Shown one piece after another: positions 228 to 34,902 of a stretch of 52,491 nucleotides of DNA. The position numbers were made by a program, and so were the translations under genes. Positions within the stretch are counted from its first letter, which is position 1; each line of letters opens with the position of its first letter. The notes beneath the pieces were generated by a model. That model was not told the origin of the DNA and did no database searches. It was given only the letters and a program-made list of their open reading frames with translations. This DNA comes from a virus (Duplodnaviria > Caudoviricetes), in the IMG/VR virus record IMGVR_UViG_3300044470_000064, positions 1 to 52,491 of that record; one strand, written 5' to 3'.

Positions 228-599
228 TCACGGCTCGCTGATCTCGACCCGGAGCCCCGGTAGCCGTCCCTTCTCCTGCTCCATCGGCAGGAGCGTCAGC
301 CAGGCGGGGGTGTCGTCAACCAGCCATCCCGCATCCCGCAGCCCGTCGACGGCCGGTTTCATGGCCGCGGTGACGTTGTCCGCGTCCATGATCTTGTGCC
401 GGGCGGAGTAGATGCGCGTGAGTTGCACCGTCCGGGGCGTTGCGGCTTTGTCGAGGTCAAGCCGGTTGCGCTCGCTCCGAGCTGCGAGGGCCACGATCTC
501 GCGGGCCTGCTTCACCCGCCGGGCTCGCTCTGCCCAGTGGATGCGCGAATTTGGCGACGGCAGCGAGGCGGGAAGTGGGACGGTGAATGTCCAGGTCAC
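228..599 (-). CDS. RusA-like Holliday junction resolvase / endodeoxyribonuclease
   Basis: PSPN..HW N-terminus and D-x-D-N....K...DGL..AG.L.DD acidic motif typical of RusA family. Confidence 0.75.
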   Translation of the reverse strand: MTWTFTVPLPASLPSPNSRIHWAERARRVKQAREIVALAARSERNRLDLDKAATPRTVQLTRIYSARHKIMDADNVTAAMKPAVDGLRDAGWLVDDTPAWLTLLPMEQEKGRLPGLRVEISEP

Positions 600-1591
600 A
601 TCTCCCCCTCACGCTCGGCCCACTCCTCATCGGGGGCGAACAACTCGGCCTGACTGCCATCCTCGCGGTCGATGGTGGCGAGGTTCTTGATGGTCTGGCG
701 GTAGTAACTGGCCTTCAACTCTACCCCCACCCCGAACCGCCCAGAGCGCACAGCCTCGTACACCTCGGACCCCACCCCCATGAACGGGGTAAACACACGC
801 TCGCCGGGGTTGCTCCACAGTTGCAGCGCCCGCTGGATCACGTCAAGCTGTAGCGGGTGCATGTGCTTCTCGTCCTCCTCGTCCCGCGAATCGCGGAAGG
901 GGAGCACGCGGCCGATGCGGACATCATCCCAAAACGCCGAGGCATACTGCCGCCATATCCACTGGGAATAGCGGTTCTCGATCTGGTTGCCCTTCCACTC
1001 GCGGTAGTGCTCCAACTCGGAAGGCACCCGGCGCTCCCCGGCGTACTCGGTTAGCCCGTGAGGGTGGGCGATGGGTACAGGGTTGTCGCCGTGCTTACGA
1101 AACACCAGGAGATAGTCGGCCGAGGCAACGGTGCATCGGGACGAATCGTCCACGATGGTCTTGTGCGCCAGGTTCTTTGCCATCGTCCGGTTGCGGACGC
1201 CTAGCGGCTCCTTCCAGATGTGATAGCGGGCAATGTAGTCGAAACCAAGAGGGCGGTGCAACCGGATGATATCGCCAGGCAGGTCCGTCAATGTGTCGCG
1301 GCCCGTGTTCCCCGAGCGCACGTCCATGCAATGCACGCACGTCACTCGCCCCGGCATGGTCAGGCGGTGGAGTTCCCGAATCACGTAGCCGTAGTGCTCT
1401 AGGAACTCGTCGTAGTTGCGTGCGTTGGACAGGTCGCGCTCCGACGAACTGTAGTGGTACAGGCCGGCGAAGGGCGGGGAGTAGACCGATAGGTGGATGG
1501 ACTTGTCAGGCAGGGATGGCATGACCTCCATGCAGTCCCCCTGGTACACGGCGTAGCGGTCGGTTACCTCCTGGGCTTCTACCTTAGCCAC
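596..1591 (-). CDS. DNA methyltransferase (N4-C/N6-A, beta class)
   Basis: GDC, SPPF (motif IV), HMHP, PGERVFTPFMGVGSE (motif I), GVELK; start set at GTG 1591 behind GGAGG. Confidence 0.9.
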   Translation of the reverse strand: MAKVEAQEVTDRYAVYQGDCMEVMPSLPDKSIHLSVYSPPFAGLYHYSSSERDLSNARNYDEFLEHYGYVIRELHRLTMPGRVTCVHCMDVRSGNTGRDTLTDLPGDIIRLHRPLGFDYIARYHIWKEPLGVRNRTMAKNLAHKTIVDDSSRCTVASADYLLVFRKHGDNPVPIAHPHGLTEYAGERRVPSELEHYREWKGNQIENRYSQWIWRQYASAFWDDVRIGRVLPFRDSRDEEDEKHMHPLQLDVIQRALQLWSNPGERVFTPFMGVGSEVYEAVRSGRFGVGVELKASYYRQTIKNLATIDREDGSQAELFAPDEEWAEREGEM

Positions 1592-2964
1592 GCCGGCACC
1601 TCCATATCGTTTGCGGTGGCATAGGGGTGTCTGACCCCTAGCGCATCGTTCATGTAGCGGAGCAGCGCATCGAACATCGCGTCGGCGCGCTCGGCCTTGC
1701 GTTGCAGGTTGGCCAGGGCGTGTGTGCCGCCCTCGGTGGTCAGGATATCCACGCTCACCGGGGACCTCTGCCCGAACCGCCAGCACCGTCTCACGGCCTG
1801 ATAATACTGTTCGTAACTGTGCGACGGGAAGAAGGCGATGCGGTGGCAATGCTGCCAGTTTAGCCCCCACCCGCCGATCTTGGGCTTTGTGATGAGCACC
1901 CGCGTTTGCCCGGTGGAGAACGCGCGCAACTTCTCCTCTTTCTCCTCTATCTCGTCAGCCCCGCTCACCTCGACAGCATCCGGGATCATGCGGCGCAACC
2001 TGGCGCCCTCGTCATTGAGGTTGCACCAGACCACCACCGCCTCTGTCCCACCGGAAACCTCAGCAGCAGCCTCGCATCTCTCGTCAATGGTACGTCGCAA
2101 CTCCTCGCGCTCCTCGTGCAACCCGATGGCTGGCATGTCGAACAGGTCACCCTCCCGGAGCGTCTTGGCCTTGACGATATGTGTGTTCGTGGTCAGCGGC
2201 GGCAAGATGAACCCATCATCCTCGAACCCCATGTCCGAAGGCTTGCGCATGGCCCGCGCCCACGAGGACACCCAGCGCCAAAACGCCTCCTGCGCGTGGC
2301 CCTTGAACCGCCATCCGGTTTTCTGCCCACCGATCCCCTTGCCGTGGTACTTGCCCCGCACGTCACTGGTTCGCTGGTCGTTGATAAAGAAGCGGTTGAG
2401 CATGTCCATGAACCCGAGTTGCCCGAGCGCCTCGCTGGCGGTGCCCAGTTCGATGTAGTCGTTCGGCGCAGCGGTAGCCGTGCCCAACAGGCGGTAGGGT
2501 ATCTCGCGTAGAAACTCCGTCACGATGGCTCGCCGCACCCCGTCAAAGGACTTGATGGCGCTGGATTCGTCGCACACCACCCCGCCGAACTTCGACGCGT
2601 CGAACTTCTCTAGGCGTTCGTAGTTGGTAATCGTGATGGGTGCGGTGACCTTCCCGTCGCGAGAGATGGCGGCCTCCTCGTGGAACTTGACCGCCTCAGT
2701 GGCGGTCTGAAACCCCACGGCCAACGGGGTCACGATGAGGACCGGCTTGCCCGTGTGGCGGTGGACGTTATCCGCCCATACCAGTTCCATCGGTGTCTTG
2801 CCGAGCCCGCAGTCAGCGAACAGTCCCGCGCGCCCTTGCCGGATGGCCCACTCGGTGAGCGCTCGTTGAAACGGGAACAAGAAGTCCGGCAGCGACACAG
2901 GCTCGAACCCGCCGGCGTCCGCGAGTTGACGCTTGCTCTCCAGGAAGGATGCGTACTCGCTCAC
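1579..2964 (-). CDS. SNF2-like / SF2 helicase
   Basis: DCGLGKT Walker A, CDES, GTATAAPN, GLNWQ, QAVRRCWRFGQ; start GTG 2964 overlapping the upstream stop. Confidence 0.9.
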   Translation of the reverse strand: MSEYASFLESKRQLADAGGFEPVSLPDFLFPFQRALTEWAIRQGRAGLFADCGLGKTPMELVWADNVHRHTGKPVLIVTPLAVGFQTATEAVKFHEEAAISRDGKVTAPITITNYERLEKFDASKFGGVVCDESSAIKSFDGVRRAIVTEFLREIPYRLLGTATAAPNDYIELGTASEALGQLGFMDMLNRFFINDQRTSDVRGKYHGKGIGGQKTGWRFKGHAQEAFWRWVSSWARAMRKPSDMGFEDDGFILPPLTTNTHIVKAKTLREGDLFDMPAIGLHEEREELRRTIDERCEAAAEVSGGTEAVVVWCNLNDEGARLRRMIPDAVEVSGADEIEEKEEKLRAFSTGQTRVLITKPKIGGWGLNWQHCHRIAFFPSHSYEQYYQAVRRCWRFGQRSPVSVDILTTEGGTHALANLQRKAERADAMFDALLRYMNDALGVRHPYATANDMEVPAWLR

Positions 2965-3200
2965 AGCATCTCCCCTATATGGGCAACAAGCCACCAGATG
3001 CCGAAGAACAGCACCAGCCACCCCACGGCTCCGGCGAGGACACACAGCAGCAGCGTGAGCGGCGTCATCCCGGCCAGGGCGCGCTCCTCGTCGGGCCGGC
3101 CGAACGTGGGCGGCACCCAGGACGTGGCTCCGTCCCAGCGCGTCAGCTTGCGCCATCCTGCCCAGTGACGAGGGCGACGGGTGATCGGGTACTGGCTCAC
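2961..3200 (-). CDS. Small membrane protein
   Basis: C-terminal hydrophobic stretch; 4-nt overlaps with both neighbours. Confidence 0.6.
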   Translation of the reverse strand: MSQYPITRRPRHWAGWRKLTRWDGATSWVPPTFGRPDEERALAGMTPLTLLLCVLAGAVGWLVLFFGIWWLVAHIGEML

Positions 3201-3817
3201 AGGATGCCTCCCTTCGGGGCGAGAGTGATGGTGTCGCGATGCTCTCCCCGGAGCGCAGCGGCGAAGTCTGCCAACGTCTCGTACCAGCGGTGGTCCGAGA
3301 GTACCTTGTCGCGTAACCTTGACTTAGCGGCGTCGTTGGTAAAGGTTCCGAAGCTCATCTCCCGCCAGCGGACCACGGGGCCGATCCGATCAGCCTCCGC
3401 CATCATCCGCGCTAGATGCTCGGGCGTCCAGTCCTGCCGGCGGGCGACGGTGGCAAGCTCGGCCATCCTCCCCTGCTCCCAGGAGTTCGGCCCCCAGCCG
3501 TCGCGTTGCTCTCGCAGCCCCGCCAGGCGGTCCTCCCGCGTCTCGGGGACCTTCGGGGCGGGCAGGAGGGCGCGGGCCTGGTTCTCCAGCGCCATGTCAT
3601 GCTCATACCCCCGGAGGACTTCCGCAAACTGGGCGATGCTCGGGAAGCGCGGCGAACTCATTGAGAGCGTGTCGATGGCGGCCTGCATCATCCCGGGATC
3701 GTGGCGTCCCAGAGCACGTCGGTACATCGTATCCACGGCGGGGTCTACGATGGCACGGTCATGGGGCCAGGCGGCACGCATCGCCGTCAGCATCGCGGCC
3801 CATTCCTGGTCGGTCAT
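3197..3817 (-). CDS. Hypothetical protein, possibly replicative helicase loader/inhibitor-like
   Basis: MT..EW..ML...AWP and SPRFPSIAQF N-terminal pattern; lies downstream of the initiator gene. Confidence 0.5.
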   Translation of the reverse strand: MTDQEWAAMLTAMRAAWPHDRAIVDPAVDTMYRRALGRHDPGMMQAAIDTLSMSSPRFPSIAQFAEVLRGYEHDMALENQARALLPAPKVPETREDRLAGLREQRDGWGPNSWEQGRMAELATVARRQDWTPEHLARMMAEADRIGPVVRWREMSFGTFTNDAAKSRLRDKVLSDHRWYETLADFAAALRGEHRDTITLAPKGGIL

Positions 3818-4149
3818 ACCGTAAGCTCCGCAACGCGAGGCTCTTGCTTGAGTACCCATAGGCACTCAGGGCAGGTGATGGGGTCAGTCGTATGCAGCCA
3901 CGCCCCCGGAGGTGGTTCAACGATCCCAGGCAACCACGGCTCCCAACGCACTGTGACCATGGAACAGAGGGTATCGCGCCAATGACCATAGGCCCTACAT
4001 TCCCCCACCCAACCACGCTCTGCTAGTAGGCGCTGGCAGACCTCACGGCGACACCGACCATCCGTGCCGTGGACGACCCCAACGGGGGACCGTAGGCGCT
4101 CTAGGACGCGTTCCATGTGCCGCTCGGGCTCAGGGATGCGCTCATCCAT
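3814..4149 (-). CDS. Hypothetical protein (CxxC)
   Basis: ORF packed with overlaps in the operon. Confidence 0.55.
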   Translation of the reverse strand: MDERIPEPERHMERVLERLRSPVGVVHGTDGRCRREVCQRLLAERGWVGECRAYGHWRDTLCSMVTVRWEPWLPGIVEPPPGAWLHTTDPITCPECLWVLKQEPRVAELTV

Positions 4150-4297
4150 GTGGCCTTCCCTCCGTGCTCCAATCCAACCCGATGAACAACGCCGCCCCTA
4201 CGAGCACCGCTATCACCAGGAGCGCAGTCGGAGCCAGGATGAGCACTACCGTGGCCGCAGCGATGAGCAGGATGGCGAGCACAGCGAGGGCGTTCAT
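4142..4297 (-). CDS. Small membrane protein
   Basis: MNALAVLAILLIAAATVV... very hydrophobic; ATGA overlap. Confidence 0.6.
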   Translation of the reverse strand: MNALAVLAILLIAAATVVLILAPTALLVIAVLVGAALFIGLDWSTEGRPHG

Positions 4298-4485
4298 GCG
4301 TCGTGGTCCAATGCATCTTCGATCTCGCCGGCAAGCTCCCGCATCGACGGGGGAAATACACCGGGTCCGCCCCACAGGACCATCCCTTCTAGGCCACCCT
4401 CCCATTCCATCTTGGCTAGGAACTCGATGCGGGTCCACTCCTGTCCGTCCTCCGCGGTCCAGCGATCCTCAACTATGGCGGGCAT
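4294..4485 (-). CDS. Hypothetical protein
   Basis: GGAG SD, operon packing. Confidence 0.6.
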   Translation of the reverse strand: MPAIVEDRWTAEDGQEWTRIEFLAKMEWEGGLEGMVLWGGPGVFPPSMRELAGEIEDALDHDA

Positions 4486-4642
4486 CGGAGGTCTCCACGG
4501 CCGATGCTACGATGGCATTGGCGAGTTTCTCGACGGCTTCGGATGTAGCGGCGATGAGGGTGTCCCCTTCGTCGGTGGTGTCCGCCAGATCGCGGAGACG
4601 CTCCACGAACTCTACTACGGCGGTGTGTATGCGCTCGCTCAC
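4469..4642 (-). CDS. Hypothetical protein (57 aa, not in ORF track)
   Basis: GTG overlapping the upstream TGA, GGAGG SD; fills the gap in the operon. Confidence 0.6.
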   Translation of the reverse strand: MSERIHTAVVEFVERLRDLADTTDEGDTLIAATSEAVEKLANAIVASAVETSDARHS

Positions 4643-5412
4643 GTCGTACCCTCCATATCCACGACTATACCACCTCCTGCGTAGCGCTGGGCAATCGTCT
4701 CCCGGTCCCGCTCCTGTTGGGTCTGCGGGGGCTTGACGTCACCGAGCGCCCCCCAGTGCTTCGCCAGCGCCGAGGGCGTTAGCCTGGCGTTCGGCAGATA
4801 GTCTGCCCACGCGGCGGCCCGACGCCTCACCTCTTCAGGGGTAGCTCCCACGGCCGCCAGGTCGCTCTTGGCCTTATTCGCCGCCCCTCTCCCTGCTGGG
4901 GTCAATTCTCGCCAGTTTACCTGGCACCCCTCGCAGATAGCCTCAAACAGCTCATCCCTTCGGGCCACTTTTGCAGGTACGTTAGTACCTGTTATGTTCT
5001 GTTCCGTCTCCGTTACTTCGGGGGCGTTCGTAGGAGCCGTCCGAACGCCGTTCGAACGCGGTTCGGGTTGGGCCGATCCATACTTGGCGCGGCGCTTCTC
5101 AGCCGAGCGCCGGCCCATCTCGGAGTAGTCCGGGGGCTCGCTCTGGTGGGCCTCCCAGTCGTGCATCTGATAGCCTGCGGGTACGATGTCCCACAGATGC
5201 CGCGCGATGAGCGCCGAGATGGTCTCCTGTTCGAGCGGCCCGGTACAGCCCAGGCCGTGCTCGATGAAACTGATCGGGATAAATCCGCCCGTGTGGTGGA
5301 GTTTGGTATAGAGCAGCCCGGAGATCCAAAGACCCCGGCTGGCAAGGGTCAGCCCGAGCCACTTGTCATGCCCCGCTAGGTCAGTGGCGACTTTGGCGTA
5401 GGTTTCGGTCAC
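4639..5412 (-). CDS. Putative replication initiator (phage replisome organiser-type)
   Basis: N-terminal W..LT..SRGLW..GL.Y winged-helix-like region, basic linker, helical C-terminal domain; position in replication arm. Confidence 0.6.
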   Translation of the reverse strand: MTETYAKVATDLAGHDKWLGLTLASRGLWISGLLYTKLHHTGGFIPISFIEHGLGCTGPLEQETISALIARHLWDIVPAGYQMHDWEAHQSEPPDYSEMGRRSAEKRRAKYGSAQPEPRSNGVRTAPTNAPEVTETEQNITGTNVPAKVARRDELFEAICEGCQVNWRELTPAGRGAANKAKSDLAAVGATPEEVRRRAAAWADYLPNARLTPSALAKHWGALGDVKPPQTQQERDRETIAQRYAGGGIVVDMEGTT

Positions 5413-5582
5413 GCCATCGCCCTCCGACGTAGCCTGCGGTACTCGACCTTCGTCTCCCTCGACAGGTGCCACAGGCCGCAAGCGGCACAGCGATACCTTC
5501 TCAGCGGGGAGCCGATGGTGGCGCGTCTAGCTGCCTCGCTATCGGCATAGGGAACCTTCCGACTGACGCATCCCTCGCTCAT
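5409..5582 (-). CDS. Small Zn-ribbon protein
   Basis: C..RKVPY and YRCAACGLWHLS. Confidence 0.65.
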   Translation of the reverse strand: MSEGCVSRKVPYADSEAARRATIGSPLRRYRCAACGLWHLSRETKVEYRRLRRRAMA

Positions 5583-5956
5583 GCGCTTGCCCCCCAGTTG
5601 TAGACCTGCTGGACGCTGGACGCGCTCCGAGGCCCGCCGAAGCCTCGGATGGGGGTGCTGGCCTCGTCCGCCGTTCTCTCGCCGAGGATGAACTCCCCCC
5701 AGACGGTATGCCCGGGGTGGGCAAGTTCGTACTCGCATACCCAGCACAATTTCATCTCATTCAGTTGGTGGCGCATCCCACAGAGAGCGCAGCGGTGCCA
5801 ACTGGCGGGGAGGGCGTTGCGTAACCGACGGTAGCCCGTCTGCTGCCGCGTAGCCGCTTCGGAGGCCACCCGATGCCGACAGGGAGGGCAGAAGCGCGCT
5901 CGGCCTTCGGGGATCATGGTGGGGCAGGTTTGGCAGGCGTGGGGATGGTACCTCAC
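5579..5956 (-). CDS. Cys-rich hypothetical protein (four CxxC)
   Basis: CQTC, CPPC, CALC, CWVC; GTGA overlap with upstream gene. Confidence 0.6.
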   Translation of the reverse strand: MRYHPHACQTCPTMIPEGRARFCPPCRHRVASEAATRQQTGYRRLRNALPASWHRCALCGMRHQLNEMKLCWVCEYELAHPGHTVWGEFILGERTADEASTPIRGFGGPRSASSVQQVYNWGASA

Positions 5957-6120
5957 GGGTAGAGCCCCAGCTTGACGGCGCGGTCCAGCCGGCGCTTCGC
6001 CACCCTCTCTGGGACGTTCAGGACGGCCCCGAGCTGGGCGCAGGTGGGTGTGACCCCATGGTGTACGTTGAACCAGATGGCGGCTGTGGCGGCCCTCTGG
6101 GCGTTTCGCTTCCCGAACAT
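5953..6120 (-). CDS. Small HTH DNA-binding protein (55 aa, not in ORF track)
   Basis: MFGKRNAQRAATAAIWFNVHHGVTPTCAQLGAVLNVPERVAKRRLDRAVKLGLYP, winged-HTH pattern; GGAGGGAG SD; first gene of the leftward operon. Confidence 0.65.
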   Translation of the reverse strand: MFGKRNAQRAATAAIWFNVHHGVTPTCAQLGAVLNVPERVAKRRLDRAVKLGLYP

Positions 6121-6150
6121 AGCTCCCTCCATCTGGTCGGCTCTGGGGGT

Positions 6151-6159
6151 AGTCTAGCA
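6151..6159 (-). promoter_or_regulatory. Leftward promoter, extended -10 TGCTAGACT
   Basis: Same TGCTAGACT element occurs ahead of the genes at 14282 and 22668. Confidence 0.55.
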
Positions 6160-6188
6160 CCCCGCGCGGGGAATTGTGCGGGGATGGG

Positions 6189-6217
6189 TTGCACGGGTGT
6201 TCGGGACGTGGTAGGAT
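6189..6217 (+). promoter_or_regulatory. Rightward sigma70-type promoter TTGCAC-N17-TAGGAT with extended TG
   Basis: Consensus-like hexamers with 17-nt spacing at the strand switch. Confidence 0.6.
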
Positions 6218-6313
6218 GCGGGTGTGAGTACGGGAGCCGCCCCGAAGCGCGCCAAACGTCCCCCCAGCGATGGGGCGGTTCCCGCATCCCACATCCCCAC
6301 TGGAGGTAAGCGC

Positions 6314-7282
6314 GTGCCCAAGAAGGACCCCCGTCGGAGCATTTACATTGCTGGCAAGATGAGGGGGTTGCCGCTCTACGGGTTCCCCGCCTTCGACGCA
6401 GCAGCCGAACGGCTCACCGCCGAAGGGTGGATTGTCCACAGTCCCGCAGACCACGATCGCTCGCTGGGATTCGACCCCGGCGGGCCGATGTGCGACGCTG
6501 AGACACTGGCTGCGATGCATCGCTGGGACATGCAGACCATCACCGAGAGTGACGCGATCTACATGTTGCCGGGGTGGGAGGACAGCGACGGGGCGACCCG
6601 AGAGCTGGACGTGGCGCGGGTGTGCGGGCTGGACGTGTATTGGGCAGACGATGCCACGCCGCCCTACGAAGCGGACGAACGGCCAGCTCCGCGTCAGTGG
6701 GAATACCCCACATGTACGTCCCACCCGACCGCCGAGCGTACCCACTGGAACGGCACCACCTGGACGGAGCCCCCATCTCCCGAAGCTGAGGCGACACTGG
6801 CGGAGTGGCAGCGCAAGTTGGACGCGTTGCCGCCGTACGTTCCAGGCGCGAAACTGCCGGTAGAGCCTCCAGACGGAGAGGCCATGGAACCGCGCCCGAC
6901 GTGGACGGTGACGCAAGAGGCGCCAGCCGTCAGTCGTCACGCCTTCAACCGCGCCGTGGATGCGAGCGTAGCGCGGACCCAGGCGATCAGCGGACAGCGG
7001 GGGGAGACCTATCAAGATACCTGGAGCGAGGCCAACCTTCGGACGTCGTTTCTGGACGCGACGTTGCGGAGTATCGCGGAGCAACAGGGCCACCACGGTG
7101 CCGACATCGAACTAGCGGCCCTGACGCCCGCCGAGAGGCGCCTGATCGTGGTCGCCTCCCTGTGTGACGTGAAGCTCTCGCGGCTCATCGGGGAGTGGAA
7201 GCAGGACCACGTAGACGACCTGGAGAACTACGCCGGCGCGTGGAACACCTGGATGGGGGAATACCTGGAGGGTAAGGCGTGA
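6314..7282 (+). CDS. DUF4406 / nucleoside 2-deoxyribosyltransferase-like domain fused to a C-terminal all-alpha nucleotide pyrophosphohydrolase-like domain
   Basis: IYIAGKMRG..FPAF..AA..L, DAIYMLPGWEDSDGA.RE; C-terminal RGETY..W...K..R....DHVDDLENYA; start 6314 (SD) or 6224 (leaderless). Confidence 0.7.
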   Translation: MPKKDPRRSIYIAGKMRGLPLYGFPAFDAAAERLTAEGWIVHSPADHDRSLGFDPGGPMCDAETLAAMHRWDMQTITESDAIYMLPGWEDSDGATRELDVARVCGLDVYWADDATPPYEADERPAPRQWEYPTCTSHPTAERTHWNGTTWTEPPSPEAEATLAEWQRKLDALPPYVPGAKLPVEPPDGEAMEPRPTWTVTQEAPAVSRHAFNRAVDASVARTQAISGQRGETYQDTWSEANLRTSFLDATLRSIAEQQGHHGADIELAALTPAERRLIVVASLCDVKLSRLIGEWKQDHVDDLENYAGAWNTWMGEYLEGKA

Positions 7283-18286: not shown

Positions 18287-20874
18287 GAATCGGCCCCATG
18301 GAGATCAGCCGCGTCCACAAGGCGGCCGACTATCCGATCCCGTCGCCCGTGAACGGCACGAACGCGCCCCCGAACATCGAGCAGTCCCTACAGAACCAGG
18401 GCATGGGCTGGCAGCTTCCGTTCCCGCCAGGCCATCCGCTCTACCCGTACTTCGGCTATGGCGCGGAGCCGCGGCAGTTCGACTACCAGACCGGTGCCAA
18501 CATCACCGTCCGCCCTCGGTCGGGCAGGATCTCGTTCGACACGCTCCGGGCCTTCACGACCACTTGGGACGTGGCCAGGATGTGCATCGCCCACCGCATC
18601 AACTCGATCCGGTCGTTCGACTGGGCGATCGTCCCCGCCGACGGTTCGGAGGGTGACAGCGACATCGGCCTGGCGCTGGAGACTGGACGGAAGGCCATCG
18701 AGAAGCCTGACGGTAGGCTGCCCTACAAGCGGTGGCTTGCCAAGGCGCTGAACTCACGTCTCCGTTATGACGCCCTGACGCTCTACAAGCGACGGGACAT
18801 GCTCGGACGTGTGATGGCGCTAGAGGTCATCGACGGGACCACCATCGCCCCGATGTTGGACTACTACGGCCGTCTGCCGGTGGGTGACGCCCCGGCCTAC
18901 CTCCAGTTCGCCAACGGCGTGCCGTGGGACTGGCTGGCTGACCGGGACGTCATCTATGCGCCCTACTTCCCGCAGGAGGATTCGCCTTACGGCTGGGCGC
19001 CGGTCGAGGACGTGATCGCCGTCGCCAACATCGACGAGCGGATGACGCTCCATCTGTTGGAATACTGGAACACGTCGAACCTACCCGCCGGCTGGCTGGA
19101 GGCTCCGCCCTCGTGGGACGACCCCGCCAAGCTGGACGACTTCCAGGCGCGGCTGAACGCCAAGCTCATGGGCGACCAGCAGAAGAAGGTGCAGGCTCAC
19201 GTCGTGCCACAGGGGACGAAGTTTACCCCGATCCGTTCGGAGTCGTTCGACACGGACGCCTACCTCTGGGGTTTCAGGAAGGGATGCGCTGCCTTCGGGG
19301 TGGTGCCGCAGGACCTCGGGGTCACGCTAGACATCAACAAGGCCACGGGGGAGACGCAGATAGACGTCCAGTCCCGGATCGCTGATCGTCCGATGTGTGA
19401 GGATCTCGACGGGCTCATCACCAGTTACCTCCAGGACGACCTGGGGCTGCCGGTGAAGATGCAGACCTCCTACTCGGCCGAGAAAGAGGATCGCGTCGCT
19501 GACGCCAATGTGTGGAAGATCGGCACCGAGGGCGGGGCTGTCACCGTGGACGAGTGGCGCTCCGAGATGTTCGGGCTGGAGGTCGATTCCGACCGGCCCG
19601 TGCCACGGTTCATCATGTCCTCTCGGGCGGGGCCGATCCCGCTGGCCAACCTGTTCGCCATCTCCGGCCCGATCAACCCCGCCACAGGTGGGCCGCTGGA
19701 CACGACACCGCTGGTGGACACCGGTAAGAAGCCCTTCGAGGCTGCCGCCGGCGTGGCTCCCGGAAAGACGCTCAACACTCCCGGCGCGCTCGTCTCGACG
19801 TTCAACCCTGATGAGCCACAGTTCCCGCAGGACGAGCTGTCTGCCACGCCTGCCCCCACCACGATCGCCGCAGTGGCCAAGAGCGAGACTGAGGGCATCA
19901 CGTCCGAGACTGGCCTAGTGGGTTACGACGAGTTCAGAGCCTCGCATCCTGAGCTAGACGACGACGAGGACGACGAGGACGACCGGGTGGCAATCCAGAA
20001 GGAACTCGGCCGCTGGCGTGACTTCGCCCGCAACCGCGTCAAGACTGGCAAGCCGCTCCGGGCCTTCGCCTCCACGGTGATCCCCGCTGATGTGTCAGAG
20101 CACATCACCAAGGCACTCGCTGGCTGCACCACGCGGGCTCAGGTTGACGCCGCCTTCGCGGAGGCCGCCAAGAGCGCCGATTTTTTTCTAGGTGACGTAG
20201 CGCCCGTTCACAAGGCGCATCCCCTTGTTCCATCCGCCACCGTGGGGAGTATTCCTGCCCTTGGCGTACATGTCCGCGATGTTGTCCTTTTGGGTCCCCA
20301 GGAAGAGATGGTCCGGGTTCACGCAGCCCCGGTTGTCGCAGTGGTGCAGAACCAACAGACCAGCGGGAATCGGCCCGTGGAAGAACTCCCAGGAAACCCG
20401 GTGGGCAAGGCGAACCCCATGAGGGTCGCCGCGGCGCCAGCGTCCCCGATGCACCCCGACGAGCGTGTGGAAGTACCCGTAGCCCCCTTTGAGGGCGCTG
20501 CTCGTTTGGGCACCAAGCCAGTTCCAACACCCGTCACCAAAAGAAACCCTGCCCCAGAATCGCAAGAACTCTTCCATAAGACCCATTATACCACCTCGCG
20601 GGCTAACCCTACTGCGGCAGTAGCCTACCCGGTCAGGAAGGCCAAGCACCCCACCGATGCCCTGCTCGACCAGATCGTGGGGCACTACGCCCCGCTGGTT
20701 GGCCAGGCGCTTGCCAGTGCGTTGCCATCACAGTCCCGGCTCGCCCAGGGGAACCTGACGCCCGCCGACCTCGACCTCTCGCAGCTACAGGCGGTGCTCA
20801 CCGAGGCCACCACGGATGCGTGGGTCGGCGGGGCGCTGATCGCGGCCGATGCCGTGACCAACCGCAGGGGCTAA
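18283..20874 (+). CDS. Portal protein with long C-terminal extension (contains an in-frame antisense HNH insertion)
   Basis: Follows TerL, AAGGAGG SD; [26 protein letters not shown] portal motifs. Confidence 0.9.
20188..20577 (-). CDS. HNH homing endonuclease nested antisense in the portal ORF
   Basis: [52 protein letters not shown]; TGGTATAAT extended -10 7 nt before ATG. Confidence 0.9.
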
Positions 20875-20875
20875 A

Positions 20876-21154
20876 GCCCCGCCCCGCCACGCCCAACCGC
20901 GCCTCACCCGGCCTTGCCTGCCACGCCATGCCAGACCCAGCCATGCCACGCCCGACCCAGCCCAGACTTGCCGGCCTAGCCTGACCGCGCCTAGCCTAGC
21001 CACACCTGCCCCGCCATGCCCTGCCTCGCCCGACCCCGCCATGCCGCGCCTCGCCTGCCACGCCGAGCCGCGCCCGGCCGAGCCGCGCCTTGACCCGCCT
21101 TGCCTGCACCGCCATGCCCCGCCCCGCCACGCCCAACCGCGCCTCACCCGGCCT
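20876..21154. repeat. 39-bp perfect direct repeat inside the array (20876-20914 and 21116-21154)
   Basis: gccccgccccgccacgcccaaccgcgcctcacccggcct occurs twice, 240 bp apart. Confidence 0.95.
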
Positions 21155-21172
21155 CGCCTAGCCGCGCCTGCC
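20876..21172 (-). ncRNA. GGY-NN pentamer array (54 pentamers, 6 units), putative guide-RNA array of the adjacent Cas7/RAMP-like gene
   Basis: Minus strand parses as (GGY NN)n with variable NN, punctuated by 4-nt GGCA/TGCA/GGCC units; the repeat is certain, RNA function is inferred. Confidence 0.75.
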
Positions 21173-21184
21173 AATAACGCGATT

Positions 21185-21682
21185 TTAGTTGGTCTCCCTC
21201 TCTACAGCATCGAGCGCTTGCCAGACGGGCGCCAACTCCTTGAGTGACTGATAGCGACGACGGAAGCCCTTGAGCGCCGCCAACGCCTCGCGGAGCACGT
21301 AACTCCGCTGACCTGGCTCTGCCAGGGCCACGGTGAGCAGAGAGTACCCCTCGCTCTGGCCGTCGTCAGGGGCCGCCATCACGACATGCACGAACGCCGG
21401 GGCATCCTCGCGGGTGCCTTCCGCATCAACGCATCGAACGGAGTTGATGATCTGACGGGCCTGCTGGACGCGCCACGCCTCAGCACCCACCCGATCATCC
21501 CACTCCAACGTCGGGTGCAGGGGGCTGTCCTCCGGCCGAGCGACGTCCACATAGGTCGCGGGGGCACAGACCCCCTCTCGGGCGGCGATCTCTGCCACCG
21601 TCTCTCCCACGACCTGAGCGGAGACGGTGCAGCCCGGACCATGTCCCGACCAAACGTAACGGGTCGCTGTAGCAAGGGTCAT
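21185..21682 (-). CDS. Accessory protein of the RAMP cassette (165 aa), function unknown
   Basis: ATG overlaps the RAMP stop (TGATG); ARPEDSPLHPTLEWDD..GAEAWRVQQARQII conserved-looking motif. Confidence 0.8.
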   Translation of the reverse strand: MTLATATRYVWSGHGPGCTVSAQVVGETVAEIAAREGVCAPATYVDVARPEDSPLHPTLEWDDRVGAEAWRVQQARQIINSVRCVDAEGTREDAPAFVHVVMAAPDDGQSEGYSLLTVALAEPGQRSYVLREALAALKGFRRRYQSLKELAPVWQALDAVERETN

Positions 21683-22275
21683 CACACCACCTCGAACAGA
21701 CCGAACTGTCCGTCCTTCTCGGGGCGCCACTCGCCGATCCCCACCGCGAAGCCTGCCAGGTTGAGCAGGTTCACGATCTGATCGACGGAGATCGAACGGG
21801 CGTTGAAGATGATCGGCAGTTTAGCCGACCACTCGGGAAACTCGGCGCGGTAGCGGATATCAGCCGTTCCCATGCCGACCCTGACCATGTCCTCCCGACT
21901 GTGGGGTGTCCCCTCGATCTTGACCATGTCACCGAGGATGTGGAAGGCGCCGCGCAGGAACGTCATCTTCATGTCGCAGTAGGTTCCCGCCCGCACGGCG
22001 GCACCCTTGAACGCGACGGACGGGAAACCGTAGCCCCCACCGGGGTACGGGTAGAGCGAAGCCTGATAGTCGGCTTCGGGGTCCTTGGCCTCCTTGGCCT
22101 GCTTGGCCGCCTTGGTCTGCTTGTCTAGCATCTGCCGCTTGGCCTTCTCCGACCAGCGGTGACAGATCAGCGGAGACAGCCCCCGCACGGTCAGCTCGAT
22201 CCGCTGAGTGTCTAGTTCGACCCGCTGCACCACGGCGGTTTCCTCTGGTGCCTTCGTCGTTGTCGTGCCGGTCAT
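21682..22275 (-). CDS. Stand-alone Cas7/RAMP-like protein (Vipr-like)
   Basis: IELTVRGLSPLICH first strand, FPSVAFKGAAVRA helix, C-terminal Gly-rich loop AGFAVGIGEWRPEKDGQFGLFEV; GAGGAG SD. Confidence 0.75.
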   Translation of the reverse strand: MTGTTTTKAPEETAVVQRVELDTQRIELTVRGLSPLICHRWSEKAKRQMLDKQTKAAKQAKEAKDPEADYQASLYPYPGGGYGFPSVAFKGAAVRAGTYCDMKMTFLRGAFHILGDMVKIEGTPHSREDMVRVGMGTADIRYRAEFPEWSAKLPIIFNARSISVDQIVNLLNLAGFAVGIGEWRPEKDGQFGLFEVV

Positions 22276-22332
22276 AGCCGCTCCTCTCGGCCGTCGGGCC
22301 GTTACAAGACCCCGGCGGCCGAATACTTCCCT

Positions 22333-22362
22333 ACTATACGCGTCCCGCTACGGGAAAGTCAA
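22333..22362 (-). promoter_or_regulatory. Sigma70-type promoter of the RAMP cassette, TTGACT-N18-TATAGT
   Basis: Near-consensus hexamers; followed by a 5'UTR hairpin and SD. Confidence 0.75.
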
Positions 22363-22738
22363 GGAGGGCAGATGCCAGGCCCCACCACTCTGACGGCCCC
22401 CGCCCAGTCGGCGCAGTCACACGGGCAGCACTTAGACATCTCTGATTTCCCTCCGGTGGATGCGGGCAATTCGTTCCACCCTCTTGCAGAAGGGCGAGGT
22501 CAAGTCCTCGGAACCGCAGACCCCCTGGGGAAGCCCGGCGTCGAGGCGGTCGAACAGATCGTCCCAGTCAATGGGATATTCGGAGTACCAACCCTCCACG
22601 ATGGATTCGATGTCCTCCCGGAGCGCATCGGCCTCCGCAGCCGTCTCTAGGAACCACCAATCGCCCATAGCGCCAGTCTAGCACAACAGGAGGGCAGATG
22701 CCAGGCCCCACCACTCTGACGGCCCCCGCCCAGTCGGC
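22362..22738. repeat. 51-bp perfect direct repeat (22362-22412 and 22688-22738) containing the MuF SD and first codons
   Basis: aggagggcagatgccaggccccaccactctgacggcccccgcccagtcggc twice, 326 bp apart. Confidence 0.95.
22432..22668 (-). CDS. Antisense moron gene, hypothetical acidic protein
   Basis: TGCTAGACT-N6-ATG leaderless promoter; lies between the 51-bp repeats. Confidence 0.7.
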   Translation of the reverse strand: MGDWWFLETAAEADALREDIESIVEGWYSEYPIDWDDLFDRLDAGLPQGVCGSEDLTSPFCKRVERIARIHRREIRDV

Positions 22739-23261
22739 ACTGCCCGCCTCGATGCAGGACACGGCATGGGGAGACTGGACGCCCGGTTGGGCTGGCGCGG
22801 CGGCCACGATCAGCGACCCTGGCCTGGACGCGGTGCTCTCGGGCCTCGGGTTCACCCTGAAGGGCCTCGCCTCGTCCACCATCGACCAGATCGGCTCCCA
22901 GATCGCTCAGGGGGTCGCCTCTGGCGCCTCGATGGATTCTATCGCCATGGGTCTCCGGGATTCGTTGGGCGGGGACGCCTCGCGGGCCTACACCATCGCT
23001 GACACCGAGTGCGCCCGTGCCGCTCAGGATGCGAGCATGCAGACCTACCAGGCCAACGGCATCGAGATGCTCGACTGGCTCGTGGCAGATGATCCCTGTG
23101 ACGACTGCCAGGCGAACGCCGACGGTGGTCCGTATGCGACGGCCGACTTCCCGGACTTGCCAGCTCATCCGAGATGCCGGTGTGCATCGTCCCCGAACAT
23201 CGAATCGCTGACTGGCGGGACCTCCGACGACACCACCAATGACACAGACCAGGGAGAGTAA
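22698..23261 (+). CDS. MuF / SPP1 gp7-like minor head protein
   Basis: [16 protein letters not shown]...[15 protein letters not shown]. Confidence 0.85.
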
Positions 23262-23263
23262 CT

Positions 23264-24739
23264 ATGGTCCGACGCGTTCTCGCTGTCCTTACCGCGCTGG
23301 CGGTCGCAGCCCTTGGGTTGTTCGCGCTGGGCTCGTCCAACCGCGTCTCGGCCGCCCCCCTGCCTGGCCTCAGCGTATCTGGTAACCACCTGGTGAACGC
23401 CTCCGGGCAGACCGTCGTGCTGCACGGGGTCGACCGGTCGGGCACCGAGTACATGTGCGTCCAGGGCGGCGGCATCTTCGACGGCCCGTCCGATGCCACC
23501 TCGGTGGCCGCGATGGCCTCGTGGGGGATCAACGCCGTCCGCATCCCTCTCAATGAGGACTGCTGGCTGGGCATCAACGGAGCCAACCCGGGCGGCGCCA
23601 TCTATCAGTCGGCGATCGAAGCATACGTCACGCTCCTGCACTCGGCCGGGATATACGCGATCCTGGACCTCCAGTGGACCGCCCCCGGTTCGGTCGAGGC
23701 GACGTACCAAGAGAACATGGCCGACTACAGCAACTCGGTGCCCTTCTGGGCGTCTGTTGGCGCCGCTTTCAAGAACGACCCGGCGACCCTCTTTGACCTC
23801 TTCACCGAGCCGAACAACATCGGCATCGTGGGTTGTGTGGCGGGCGCTCCTGCCGGTTGTGCTACCGCCGTCGCCGAATCCGCCGCCGGCAACGGTGAGG
23901 GCGCCTTCTGGTGGTGCGCCTACGTAGGGACAGGCTGCATCGCCAACCAGAACTCGGCCAAGTTCGGGAACTGGCAGATCGCCTCCATGCAGGACATGCT
24001 TACCGCCGTCCGCGGTGCCGGAGCATCCAACGTCGTCATGGTCGGGGCCGACCAGTTCGCCAACGACCCGAGCGCATGGCTGGCGAATGTGCCGGTCGAT
24101 CCTGACCATCAGCTCGCCATGAGTTTCCACGTGTACAACTTCAACTACCCCTGTGTGAGCCTCGCCTGCTGGAACTCCGAGCTCCTGCCCATCGCCGCCT
24201 CGTACCCGATCATCTCGGGTGAGATCGGCGAGAGTGACGGCAGTGCGAGCTTCATCGACGGCTACATGGCTTGGGCGGATGCCAACGGGGTCTCGTACCT
24301 CGCGTGGACCTGGGACACCTGGGGTTGCGGAGATTCGGCCGTGCTGATCTCTTCCTACACCGGAACCGCCTGTGCCGGGTATGGCGCTGGATACCAGGCG
24401 CACCTGGCCACGCTGGCTGGCAGCACCCCAACACCGACGAGCACACCGACGGCGACGCCGACCAGTGGACCAACGTCCACACCTACCCCTAGTCTGCCGA
24501 CACCCACCCCCACGTCCACACCTACGGCAGTGCCGACCCCGACACCCACGGCGGTGCCGACGGCCACCCCCACGCCACGTCCGACGAGCACGCCGCGACC
24601 AACTGCTACCCCGCGGCCGAGCGCGACGCCTACACCTACTCCGACGCCGGAGCCGAGCTTCACCGAGACGATCACCGTCAACGGACACACCTGCACGATC
24701 ACCGTGACTAACGGCGTGGTTAGCGGGACTTGCACATGA
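23264..24739 (+). CDS. Secreted glycoside hydrolase family 5 (cellulase-like) with Pro/Thr linker
   Basis: Signal peptide, [28 protein letters not shown] acid/base, FHVY, GEIG nucleophile, YLAWTW. Confidence 0.85.
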
Positions 24740-33581: not shown

Positions 33582-34258
33582 TCACGGTCGTCATTCCAGC
33601 AGCCGGGGAGGGATCGCGCTTCCGCCAAGCCGGATACACGGACCCAAAGCTCCTCATCCCCGTCCTGGGCATCCCCATGGTCTATCGGGTGCTGGCGAAC
33701 GTTACTCCAGTTCTCCGCCCCTCCCATACGGTCGTGGTCCACCGCGGAGACCTAGAGGGTTGGGTGGCCCTCGATCGCCCCACCGGCGGGGCATTGGAGA
33801 CAATCTTGCGAGCCGAGGGTCAGATCGACCCCGACGATGGGCTCCTGCTCGCCAACTGCGACCAACTCATCACTCTCGACCCTGATAGGTTCGTGGCTGC
33901 CGCAGAGCAACACGACGGAGCCGTGGTGGTGTTTCCCTCCAGCAACCCCCACCACTCCTACGTCGAGGCTGACGCTGACGGGGTCATAACCCGGATCGTG
34001 GAGAAGGAGGTCATCTCTCGTCACGCGGTCTCAGGGGTGTATTACTTCACTCGGGCCTCGGAATTTATCGCCGCTGCAAAGCGGGCCATCGCTGGCGACC
34101 AAAGGGTCAAGGGTGAGTTCTACGTGTCCACCGCCATCGGTCTGATGATCGAGGCGGGAGCGAAACTAATCCCCTATCCAGCAGACACGGCCATTCTCGG
34201 CACCCCTGACGAGTTGCAGCTTTTCGAGATGGCCGCGCGGGTTGCCGCGGATCTATGA
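33578..34258 (+). CDS. Sugar-phosphate nucleotidyltransferase-like protein
   Basis: IPAAGEGSRF....Y..PK.LI, NCDQ, EKEVIS, GEFYV, LGTP. Confidence 0.85.
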   Translation: MITVVIPAAGEGSRFRQAGYTDPKLLIPVLGIPMVYRVLANVTPVLRPSHTVVVHRGDLEGWVALDRPTGGALETILRAEGQIDPDDGLLLANCDQLITLDPDRFVAAAEQHDGAVVVFPSSNPHHSYVEADADGVITRIVEKEVISRHAVSGVYYFTRASEFIAAAKRAIAGDQRVKGEFYVSTAIGLMIEAGAKLIPYPADTAILGTPDELQLFEMAARVAADL

Positions 34259-34902
34259 ACGTGCTCGTCTTCGGCGGGGGCGGGATAGCTCAGGGGATTG
34301 GGCGGGTGATGAGCGCCACCATTCTCGAACAGAGGGACGTGGACGTCCGGATGATGGGTGCGGTGGCCGCAGCCGTCCAGCAACGTCGCCCGGAAGTCGT
34401 GGTCAACTGTGCCGGCGTGTCCTACGTCCACGAGATCGGGGGTTGCCACCCCGACGCCTGGGAGCAGGATGTATTCGTCAACCTGATCGGCAGCTATCAC
34501 GTAGCGCGCGCGTGCTGCGCTTTCGGTGTCCAGACCATGATCTTCATCGCCAGCGTGGCGGGGATGTACGGCAAGCCCAACCACTCTAGCTACTGCGCCT
34601 CCAAGGCGGGGGTCATCTCGCTGGTGCAGTCGCTGGCGATGGAAGGCCACAACGCCTACGCTATCTCCCCCGGTCGGGTAGATACTCCGATGCGTGAGCG
34701 CGACTACCCAAACGACACTCCCGGCAGTCGGCTGTCCCCGGAGCAGATCGGCGGCGTGGTCCAGGAGATAATCCGCGGCGAGCACACCCCGGGCGACAAC
34801 ATCGTCATCCGCAAGCAAGGGCTGACGGAGGTCATACGCGAGGTGGACCGTGGGGGGCCGTGGCGCGAGACGCTACGGGTTGGCCAGCCGGTGACGATAT
34901 GA
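34255..34902 (+). CDS. Short-chain dehydrogenase/reductase
   Basis: GGGGIA, NCAG, ASVAG, YCASK, SPGRVDT. Confidence 0.9.
   Translation: MNVLVFGGGGIAQGIGRVMSATILEQRDVDVRMMGAVAAAVQQRRPEVVVNCAGVSYVHEIGGCHPDAWEQDVFVNLIGSYHVARACCAFGVQTMIFIASVAGMYGKPNHSSYCASKAGVISLVQSLAMEGHNAYAISPGRVDTPMRERDYPNDTPGSRLSPEQIGGVVQEIIRGEHTPGDNIVIRKQGLTEVIREVDRGGPWRETLRVGQPVTI

Follow-up and report, generated by a model that had tools for sequence, protein, structure and literature searches.

VIPR (viral interference programmable repeat) systems were described in 2026, and functional work on them has so far concerned phages of E. coli and Pseudomonas. In the available portions of two reports (10.64898/2026.04.26.720920, 10.64898/2026.04.26.720927), a VIPR locus consists of a small RAMP protein named Vipr, as a rule a single accessory gene (vap), and vrRNAs with 9–16 GGYNN repeats. 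One Vipr protomer is assigned to each repeat; the GGY is sequestered, and the NN bases read double-stranded DNA, skipping every third target base. The same source describes VIPR systems as mostly phage-borne, silencing competing elements, and falling into seven types (10.64898/2026.04.26.720920). This article examines a 1.49-kb cassette on the minus strand (~22362–20874) of the IMG/VR virus record IMGVR_UViG_3300044470_000064. The stretch analysed (the window) is the whole 52.5-kb record, with terminase, portal, MuF, tail and lysin genes. The cassette is very probably a VIPR system that a high-GC tailed-phage genome carries as an accessory insert. This assignment rests on homology, fold, residue conservation, array statistics, a conserved vipr–vap–array module, and insertion relative to sibling genomes. 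Judged from its sequence, the cassette is a genuine, apparently intact VIPR of the staggered-array form. The locus is present in three peat-metagenome DNA runs and in no listed RNA run, and provides a clean and complete VIPR example from an uncultured high-GC phage.

The first gene of the cassette encodes a homologue of the Vipr protein of Escherichia phage SUSP1. Among PDB sequences, phmmer retrieves 36pp_D, ‘SUSP1 Vipr protein’, with an E-value of 7.7e-6; a profile built from 36 family members reaches the same chain at 7.3e-10. Compared by BLASTP with SUSP1 gp039, which is the SUSP1 Vipr, the protein shows 35% identity over 65 amino acids (aa) within the C-terminal third only (E 6e-11). The family profile aligns with gp039 over 162 columns in hhalign (probability 97.2, E 3.2e-11). 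In this alignment, the SUSP1 contact residues H17, K33, R138, D177, W178 and R179 map to H39, K55, R143, E182, W183 and R184, respectively; five of the six are identical, and the sixth is a change from D to E. All six mapped residues are either invariant or at least 90% conserved among the 36 family members. The glycine-rich loop (residues 175–185) reads GFAVGIGEWRP. The GC content of the gene at the three codon positions is 0.62/0.44/0.84.

The predicted structure points the same way. An AlphaFold model of Vipr (predicted local distance difference test, pLDDT, 86.7) yields 35 Foldseek matches at E ≤ 1e-3, and among the matches listed, all are chains of CRISPR effector complexes. The best VIA-align match is 9g9a_D, a Csm chain (Z 10.9, root-mean-square deviation 3.4 over 144 aa), with Csm3 (6ae2_B) at Z 10.4, and the top 30 rows are CRISPR RAMPs throughout. 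On the basis of the model, Vipr is a minimal RAMP fold, with a single RRM core, a thumb and the glycine-rich loop. The Vipr structure entry itself is absent from the fold-library matches; the Foldseek copy ends at 2026-04-08. The original prediction, made from the bare sequence, had called the 197-aa product RAMP/Cas7-like and suspected a VIPR member. The first claim is borne out by the SUSP1 homology and by the fold in both Foldseek and VIA-align, and the second by the homology, the contact residues and the co-oriented GGYNN arrays of relatives. Neither Vipr nor Vap has a match in Pfam, NCBIfam or PADLOC. Vipr belongs to PHROG 4652 (E 2e-30), a family of unknown function. The family is very extensive, with 7948 of 8000 scored candidates, and 3737 cluster representatives at 50% identity, at E ≤ 1e-3.

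The array begins at 21172, 12 nucleotides (nt) past the vap stop. Its GGYNN units form six chains of 7–12, each displaced by −1 nt from the preceding chain. The 60 units occupy 299 nt, as one base is shared at each of five junctions. Three junctions end in GGCAG, whose final G is also the first G of the next chain; the other two are degenerate (TGCAG and GCAAG). GGCA also precedes the first chain. The resulting 4-nt spacing at a junction would break the protomer register, and so set the guide ends. Entropy is low at the GGY positions (0.12/0.33/0.73 bits) and high at the NN positions (1.86/1.89 bits). Perfect GGY chains of at least four units contain 54 of the units, compared with a mean of 0.25 and a maximum of 8 when the array itself is dinucleotide-shuffled 1000 times; the rest of the window contains a single other GGY chain, of four units. 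Tandem Repeats Finder reports overlapping rows with periods of 5, 10, 15, 20 and 25. The published search, as described in the available text, looked for adjacent tandem YNNGG/GGYNN repeats of at least four units (10.64898/2026.04.26.720920); the window array contains such repeats on the vipr strand. Natural variation is also confined to the variable bases: in one metagenome contig, the three differences (21022, 21026 and 21027) all fall on N positions, in two units of guide g3. The array has one internal duplication, the first 45 nt of the g1 core recurring in g6 as a 98% direct repeat. No notable structure is predicted for the array RNA (z −2.2).

The cassette has the arrangement of a putative single transcription unit (Table 1). 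Its promoter-like site has 10 of 12 consensus matches, and is the sole such site in 20500–22800 (50 shuffles: mean 0.0). The vap ATG shares its A with the vipr TGA, giving a one-base overlap. At its 3′ end, the array passes into a short hairpin, within which the convergent portal open reading frame (ORF) has its stop codon; the hairpin is not called by a terminator scan. No Cas model matches any of 65 window ORFs in PADLOC, no repeat-spacer CRISPR array or CRISPR-like repeat family is found elsewhere in the window, and Rfam gives nothing credible in 20300–22700. The original prediction had described this layout correctly, with a TTGACT-N18-TATAGT promoter, a 197-aa gene, a translationally coupled 165-aa gene and an array 12 nt after the latter's stop. 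It was also right that neither cas genes nor a repeat-spacer array accompany them. Its 297-nt array ending at 20876 is real as an array, and its length and end are corrected to 299 nt and 20874.

Table 1. Features of the VIPR cassette, in window coordinates.
Feature	Coordinates	Strand	Remarks
Sigma-70-type promoter-like site	22333..22362	-	TTGACT (22362-22357), 18-nt spacer, TATAGT (22338-22333)
vipr gene, 197 aa, RAMP (Cas7-like) protein	21682..22275	-	ATG start; from homology and model
vap (Vipr-accessory) gene, 165 aa	21185..21682	-	start overlaps vipr stop (TGATG)
Staggered vrRNA array, 60 GGYNN units, six registers	20874..21172	-	299 nt
Guide g1, 12 units + terminal TGCAG	21104..21168	-	preceded by GGCA at 21172-21169
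Guide g2, 9 units (one degenerate) + terminal GGCAG	21055..21104	-	candidate anti-vipr guide
Guide g3, 9 units + terminal GGCAG	21006..21055	-	carries three natural variants, all at N positions
Guide g4, 7 units + degenerate terminal GCAAG	20967..21006	-	
Guide g5, 9 units (first degenerate) + terminal GGCAG	20918..20967	-	
Guide g6, 9 units, 7 common to g1	20874..20918	-	candidate guide against sibling phage portal gene
Short GC hairpin at array 3′ end, 5-bp stem, 4-nt loop, no T-run after	20867..20880	-	from sequence and minimum-energy fold

The same module recurs in relatives, of which the best 80 of 180 IMG/VR loci were compared. GGYNN chains of at least five units are present in 54 of these loci on the vipr strand and in none on the opposite strand (171 chains versus 0); for chains of at least seven units, the count is 27 versus 0. 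The chains lie mostly ~480–870 nt downstream of vipr, with a few upstream, and some of the 26 chainless loci end just after vipr. None of the window's guides recurs in the other arrays of these loci, and the NN bases differ, in agreement with the original expectation that homologues would carry GGY-NN arrays with variable NN. The staggering is shared as well. Of the 57 junctions with a one-nucleotide overlap in the window and the 80 loci taken together, 50 end in GGCAG; GGCA/G stands before the first chain in 18 of 37 sources that have a chain of at least six units (window and fetched loci). A Vap homologue directly follows vipr in 70 of the 80 loci, and in L001–L004 a divergent ORF of Vap size takes this place, still aligning with Vap. 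The conserved unit is therefore vipr, vap and array, since the neighbouring genes of the window (an HNH gene, a 78-aa ORF, MuF and the portal C-terminus) recur at none of the 80 loci. For the same reason, the HNH gene was rejected as a VIPR partner. A variant arrangement is seen in L005 (2819–3631), where the array, of ~130 units, follows vipr at 28 nt without an intervening vap.

The family also reaches cultured phages. Thirty-four phage records belong to it, 27 from Mycobacterium and five from Gordonia phages, and in every one the protein is annotated as hypothetical; the arrays there are either unannotated or annotated as a protein gene. Gordonia phage ODay has a staggered GGYNN array immediately after gene 19 (L085 3129–3271). 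In Mycobacterium phage Donkeykong, such an array lies upstream of the vipr homologue, gene 49 (L086 1990–2335). It is annotated as protein-coding (coding sequence (CDS) 48 and the end of CDS 47), and this annotation is probably spurious.

Among described systems, the SUSP1 VIPR (type II, with vipr–vap1 and four vrRNAs) offers the most direct comparison. The Vipr proteins are homologous and of similar size (197 versus 195 aa), with the contact residues kept; both loci are phage-carried two-gene operons without cas genes, and have same-strand GGYNN repeats of ~10–12 units. In contrast, the Vap proteins are unrelated, and Vipr identity is only ~35%. According to the available description, the SUSP1 vrRNAs are separate units of ~100 nt with a 3′ pseudoknot tail, one upstream and three downstream of the genes, whereas the window guides all lie downstream and abut with 1-nt overlaps (a 3′ tail was not searched for). 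The type II architecture, with separate tailed vrRNAs and vap1, does not fit this locus. A closer likeness is to the staggered arrays of fig. S18, whose legend states that vrRNAs overlap by 1 nt, each beginning where the previous one ends (10.64898/2026.04.26.720920); guides with 1-nt overlaps are found in the window and its relatives, the comparison being with the legend only. The window thus presents a VIPR system with a different accessory protein and a tail-less-looking, staggered form of array.

Vipr shares its RRM core, thumb and glycine-rich loop with type III Cas7 RAMPs (Csm3/Cmr4; Z 10.9–10.2). Unlike type III CRISPR-Cas loci, the window has no other cas genes, repeat-spacer array or adaptation module, and the steps differ: 5 nt with two guide bases in VIPR, and 6 nt with five paired bases in type III Cas7. 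A class 1 CRISPR-Cas identity was ruled out, given that there is no repeat-spacer array and there are no further cas genes (cas5/6/8/10, cas1/2). TIGR-Tas systems, as far as their available descriptions go, are likewise compact, phage-associated, RNA-guided and DNA-targeting, with tandem arrays; their effector is, however, unrelated and contains a Nop domain, and their array period is 18 nt (10.64898/2026.10.21.760802).

By analogy with SUSP1, the following mode of action can be proposed. The single promoter would drive vipr, the translationally coupled vap and the 299-nt array. Vipr would bind the array transcript with one protomer per pentamer, using its conserved His, Arg and Glu-Trp-Arg residues to grip the GGY and leaving the NN pairs exposed. 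At a GGCAG junction, the change in spacing from 5 to 4 nt would break the register and give six separate guides of 7–12 units. Each filament would then bind double-stranded DNA matching NN-x-NN-x, the published code in which 1 nt is skipped, and block transcription of a competing phage. RNA binding, filament formation and DNA silencing are all carried over from the published SUSP1 work. The original prediction had each protomer gripping one GGY and displaying the NN, which would together act as a non-contiguous guide. One protomer per repeat accords with the literature; the sole grip does not, as in the published structure two neighbouring protomers jointly hold each GGY, according to the available part of that report (10.64898/2026.04.26.720920).

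The accessory protein is less readily placed. Vap belongs to PHROG 15946 (E 3e-26), a family of unknown function, and sequence searches find only two close proteins. The sequence collection has a shorter call of 141 aa; the longer N-terminus of the 165-aa form aligns with relatives. No relative is present among PDB sequences, and matches in the ESM Atlas are confined to unnamed viral clusters. The model is of good quality by its score (pLDDT 89.7), and fold searches give no match above noise (best Z 5.9). Winged-helix regulators align with residues 17–117 at Z 4.6–5.4, under the noise level quoted for the tool, which is a hint only. An accessory role for Vap in the VIPR system is suggested solely by analogy with published Vaps.

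The genomic setting provides further support for an accessory insert, since two near-identical siblings do not have the cassette. A single PHROG portal profile spans both the portal ORF (profile positions 30–410) and the MuF ORF (581–711) of the window. In sibling L089 (93% nucleotide identity), vipr, vap and array are all absent, and portal and MuF form one continuous ORF. Sibling L088 (~94% nucleotide identity) also lacks all three; an unrelated antisense ORF of 176 aa (L088 4441–4971) occupies the cassette site. This comparison shows the VIPR cassette to be inserted in the portal–MuF linker, and the unrelated ORF of L088 marks this linker as an insertion hot spot. Portal relatives were found neither in JGI metagenomes nor in GTDB genomes. 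The L089 portal–MuF ORF (2799–6383, 1194 aa) contains an extra segment ending in ...THN right before a CRCASSP motif; from the translation only, this looks like an intein.

The guides were compared with potential targets using the 1-nt-skip code. Within the window, no guide has a match at 80% or more of its NN bases; the published work likewise reports an absence of self-targets for its own systems (10.64898/2026.04.26.720920). No match at 80% or more of NN bases is credited for g1, g3, g4 or g5. For g4, which has 14 specified bases and was not part of the collection-wide exact searches, two matches at 12/14 look like chance. Two guides have candidate targets. Guide g2 matches the vipr genes of four relatives (L005, L006, L009 and L012) at 15/18 on the antisense strand, with the skips on wobble positions; the matched codons spell TEARGAFHV. 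The window's own vipr reads TFLRGAFHI at this site and matches at 11/18. Among 1000 random guides, 35 match at least one vipr gene, two match at least four, and seven are wobble-aligned. Guides that target Vipr have been reported (10.64898/2026.10.15.759431, available in part). For guide g6, the match lies in the portal gene of sibling L088 (L088 4395–4420), at 16/18 in codon register, both mismatches being in the last unit (16/16 without it). The window's own site (20809–20834) matches at 13/18, with the first two codons recoded. Random 9-unit guides reach 16/18 at 0.043 per guide per Mb of positions, or ~0.012 per guide for four sibling records. When all guides were compared with these four records at up to three mismatches, only g6 matched; one backwards control also matched. 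These comparisons make rival vipr genes (for g2) and the sibling portal gene (for g6) suggestive candidate targets.

Read by the 1-nt-skip code, the duplicated stretch shared by g1 and g6, the only one in the array, gives the portal–MuF linker codons (K)RDAWVGG, and does so in codon register. These codons lie ~60 nt from the cassette position. It is conceivable, if rather doubtful, that the cassette polices its own insertion site: it would silence the late structural operon of near-identical, cassette-free siblings that co-infect the cell, the carrier being immune by recoding, while the targets of g2 would be rival VIPR systems. If true, such policing of an insertion site would amount to a selfish logic of sibling exclusion. 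Near-identical siblings with and without the cassette, together with a candidate sibling target, constitute a natural test of VIPR between close phages.

Several observations weigh against an active VIPR system of the SUSP1 kind. On the protein side, SUSP1 D177 is replaced by Glu (E182), E71/M72 of SUSP1 helix 1, which restrict the Y pocket, align with Ala-Ala (A92/A93), and C173 aligns with Val (V178). The Vap profile gives an hhalign probability of 0.1 against SUSP1 Vap1, so the two are unrelated, and there is no clear fold match. On the target side, exact 1-nt-skip searches with g1, the longest guide, find nothing in IMG/VR, GTDB genomes or JGI metagenomes. The 18-base guides have 0 (g2), 1 (g3), 2 (g5) and 1 (g6) exact matches, with 0 for a reversed-unit control. 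These four lie in contigs of 42–61% GC, only one is wobble-aligned, and they look like chance. Finally, each candidate target is one site or one homologous set of sites. One way of reading such data is that the genes and array were inherited and no longer act, the locus being a decaying remnant. Degenerate units (GTCAA, GTCTG and the terminal TGCAG and GCAAG) and the lack of a perfect target credited to any guide in the collections searched would fit this. Yet both ORFs are intact with strong third-position GC, the promoter is near-consensus, the contact residues are kept, and the three natural variants are confined to N positions; internal degeneracy of vrRNAs is, moreover, described as frequent in published systems (10.64898/2026.04.26.720920, available in part). 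Decay is thus improbable.

Loss of activity is not the only way in which silencing of DNA could be the wrong description. A VIPR-like system might instead destroy its target or act on RNA, as has been proposed for the nuclease-linked types III and V. The HNH gene on the same strand (20188–20685), ~190 nt downstream, could be taken to suggest the former, and the RNA-targeting type III Cas7 proteins that are the nearest structural neighbours of Vipr the latter. This HNH gene, however, occurs in 0 of the 80 related VIPR loci, is a separate 417-nt insertion absent from L088 and L089, and is classed by its score as a homing endonuclease. The partner that is conserved, the small Vap, shows no signature of a nuclease. 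Such an activity is accordingly very improbable. That the pentamer tract is no guide array at all, and is instead a coding region or a plain G-rich simple repeat, is barely credible. A 129-aa ORF (20785–21174) does span the tract, and a GenBank CDS covers the homologous Donkeykong tract. A 5-nt period with −1 register shifts is, however, incompatible with a conserved reading frame; the constraint is on GGY and not on codons, the sequences are not conserved between relatives, and the strict confinement of the tracts to the vipr strand in relatives fits neither coding sequence nor simple repeat. A staggered VIPR array remains the preferred reading of the tract.

Other parts of the genome also show signs of insertion. 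The HNH homing-endonuclease gene (Pfam HNH_3, E 1e-15) lies antisense inside the portal ORF, its insertion spanning 20178–20594. The plus-strand portal frame stays open through this insertion (872 aa versus 734 aa in L088), although third-position GC falls to 0.58–0.72 there. Upstream of vipr, a perfect 51-nt direct repeat (22362–22412 and 22688–22738) comprises the MuF ribosome-binding site and the first 13 codons. The two copies bracket a 275-nt segment containing the 78-aa minus-strand ORF (22432–22668), for which no family match was obtained; a second insertion may have left this arrangement as its scar.

Further genes of the window include unusual phage cargo. Directly after MuF, within the structural module, 23264–24739 (+) encodes a 491-aa glycoside hydrolase of family 5 (cellulase) with a signal-like N-terminus and a Pro/Thr-rich tail. 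A short-chain dehydrogenase match (34255–34902, +; Pfam adh_short, E 4e-18) is found among the structural genes. At the left genome end (596–3156, −), a DNA methyltransferase (PADLOC MTase_II, E 2e-24) overlaps a helicase (PHROG 62, E 2e-54).

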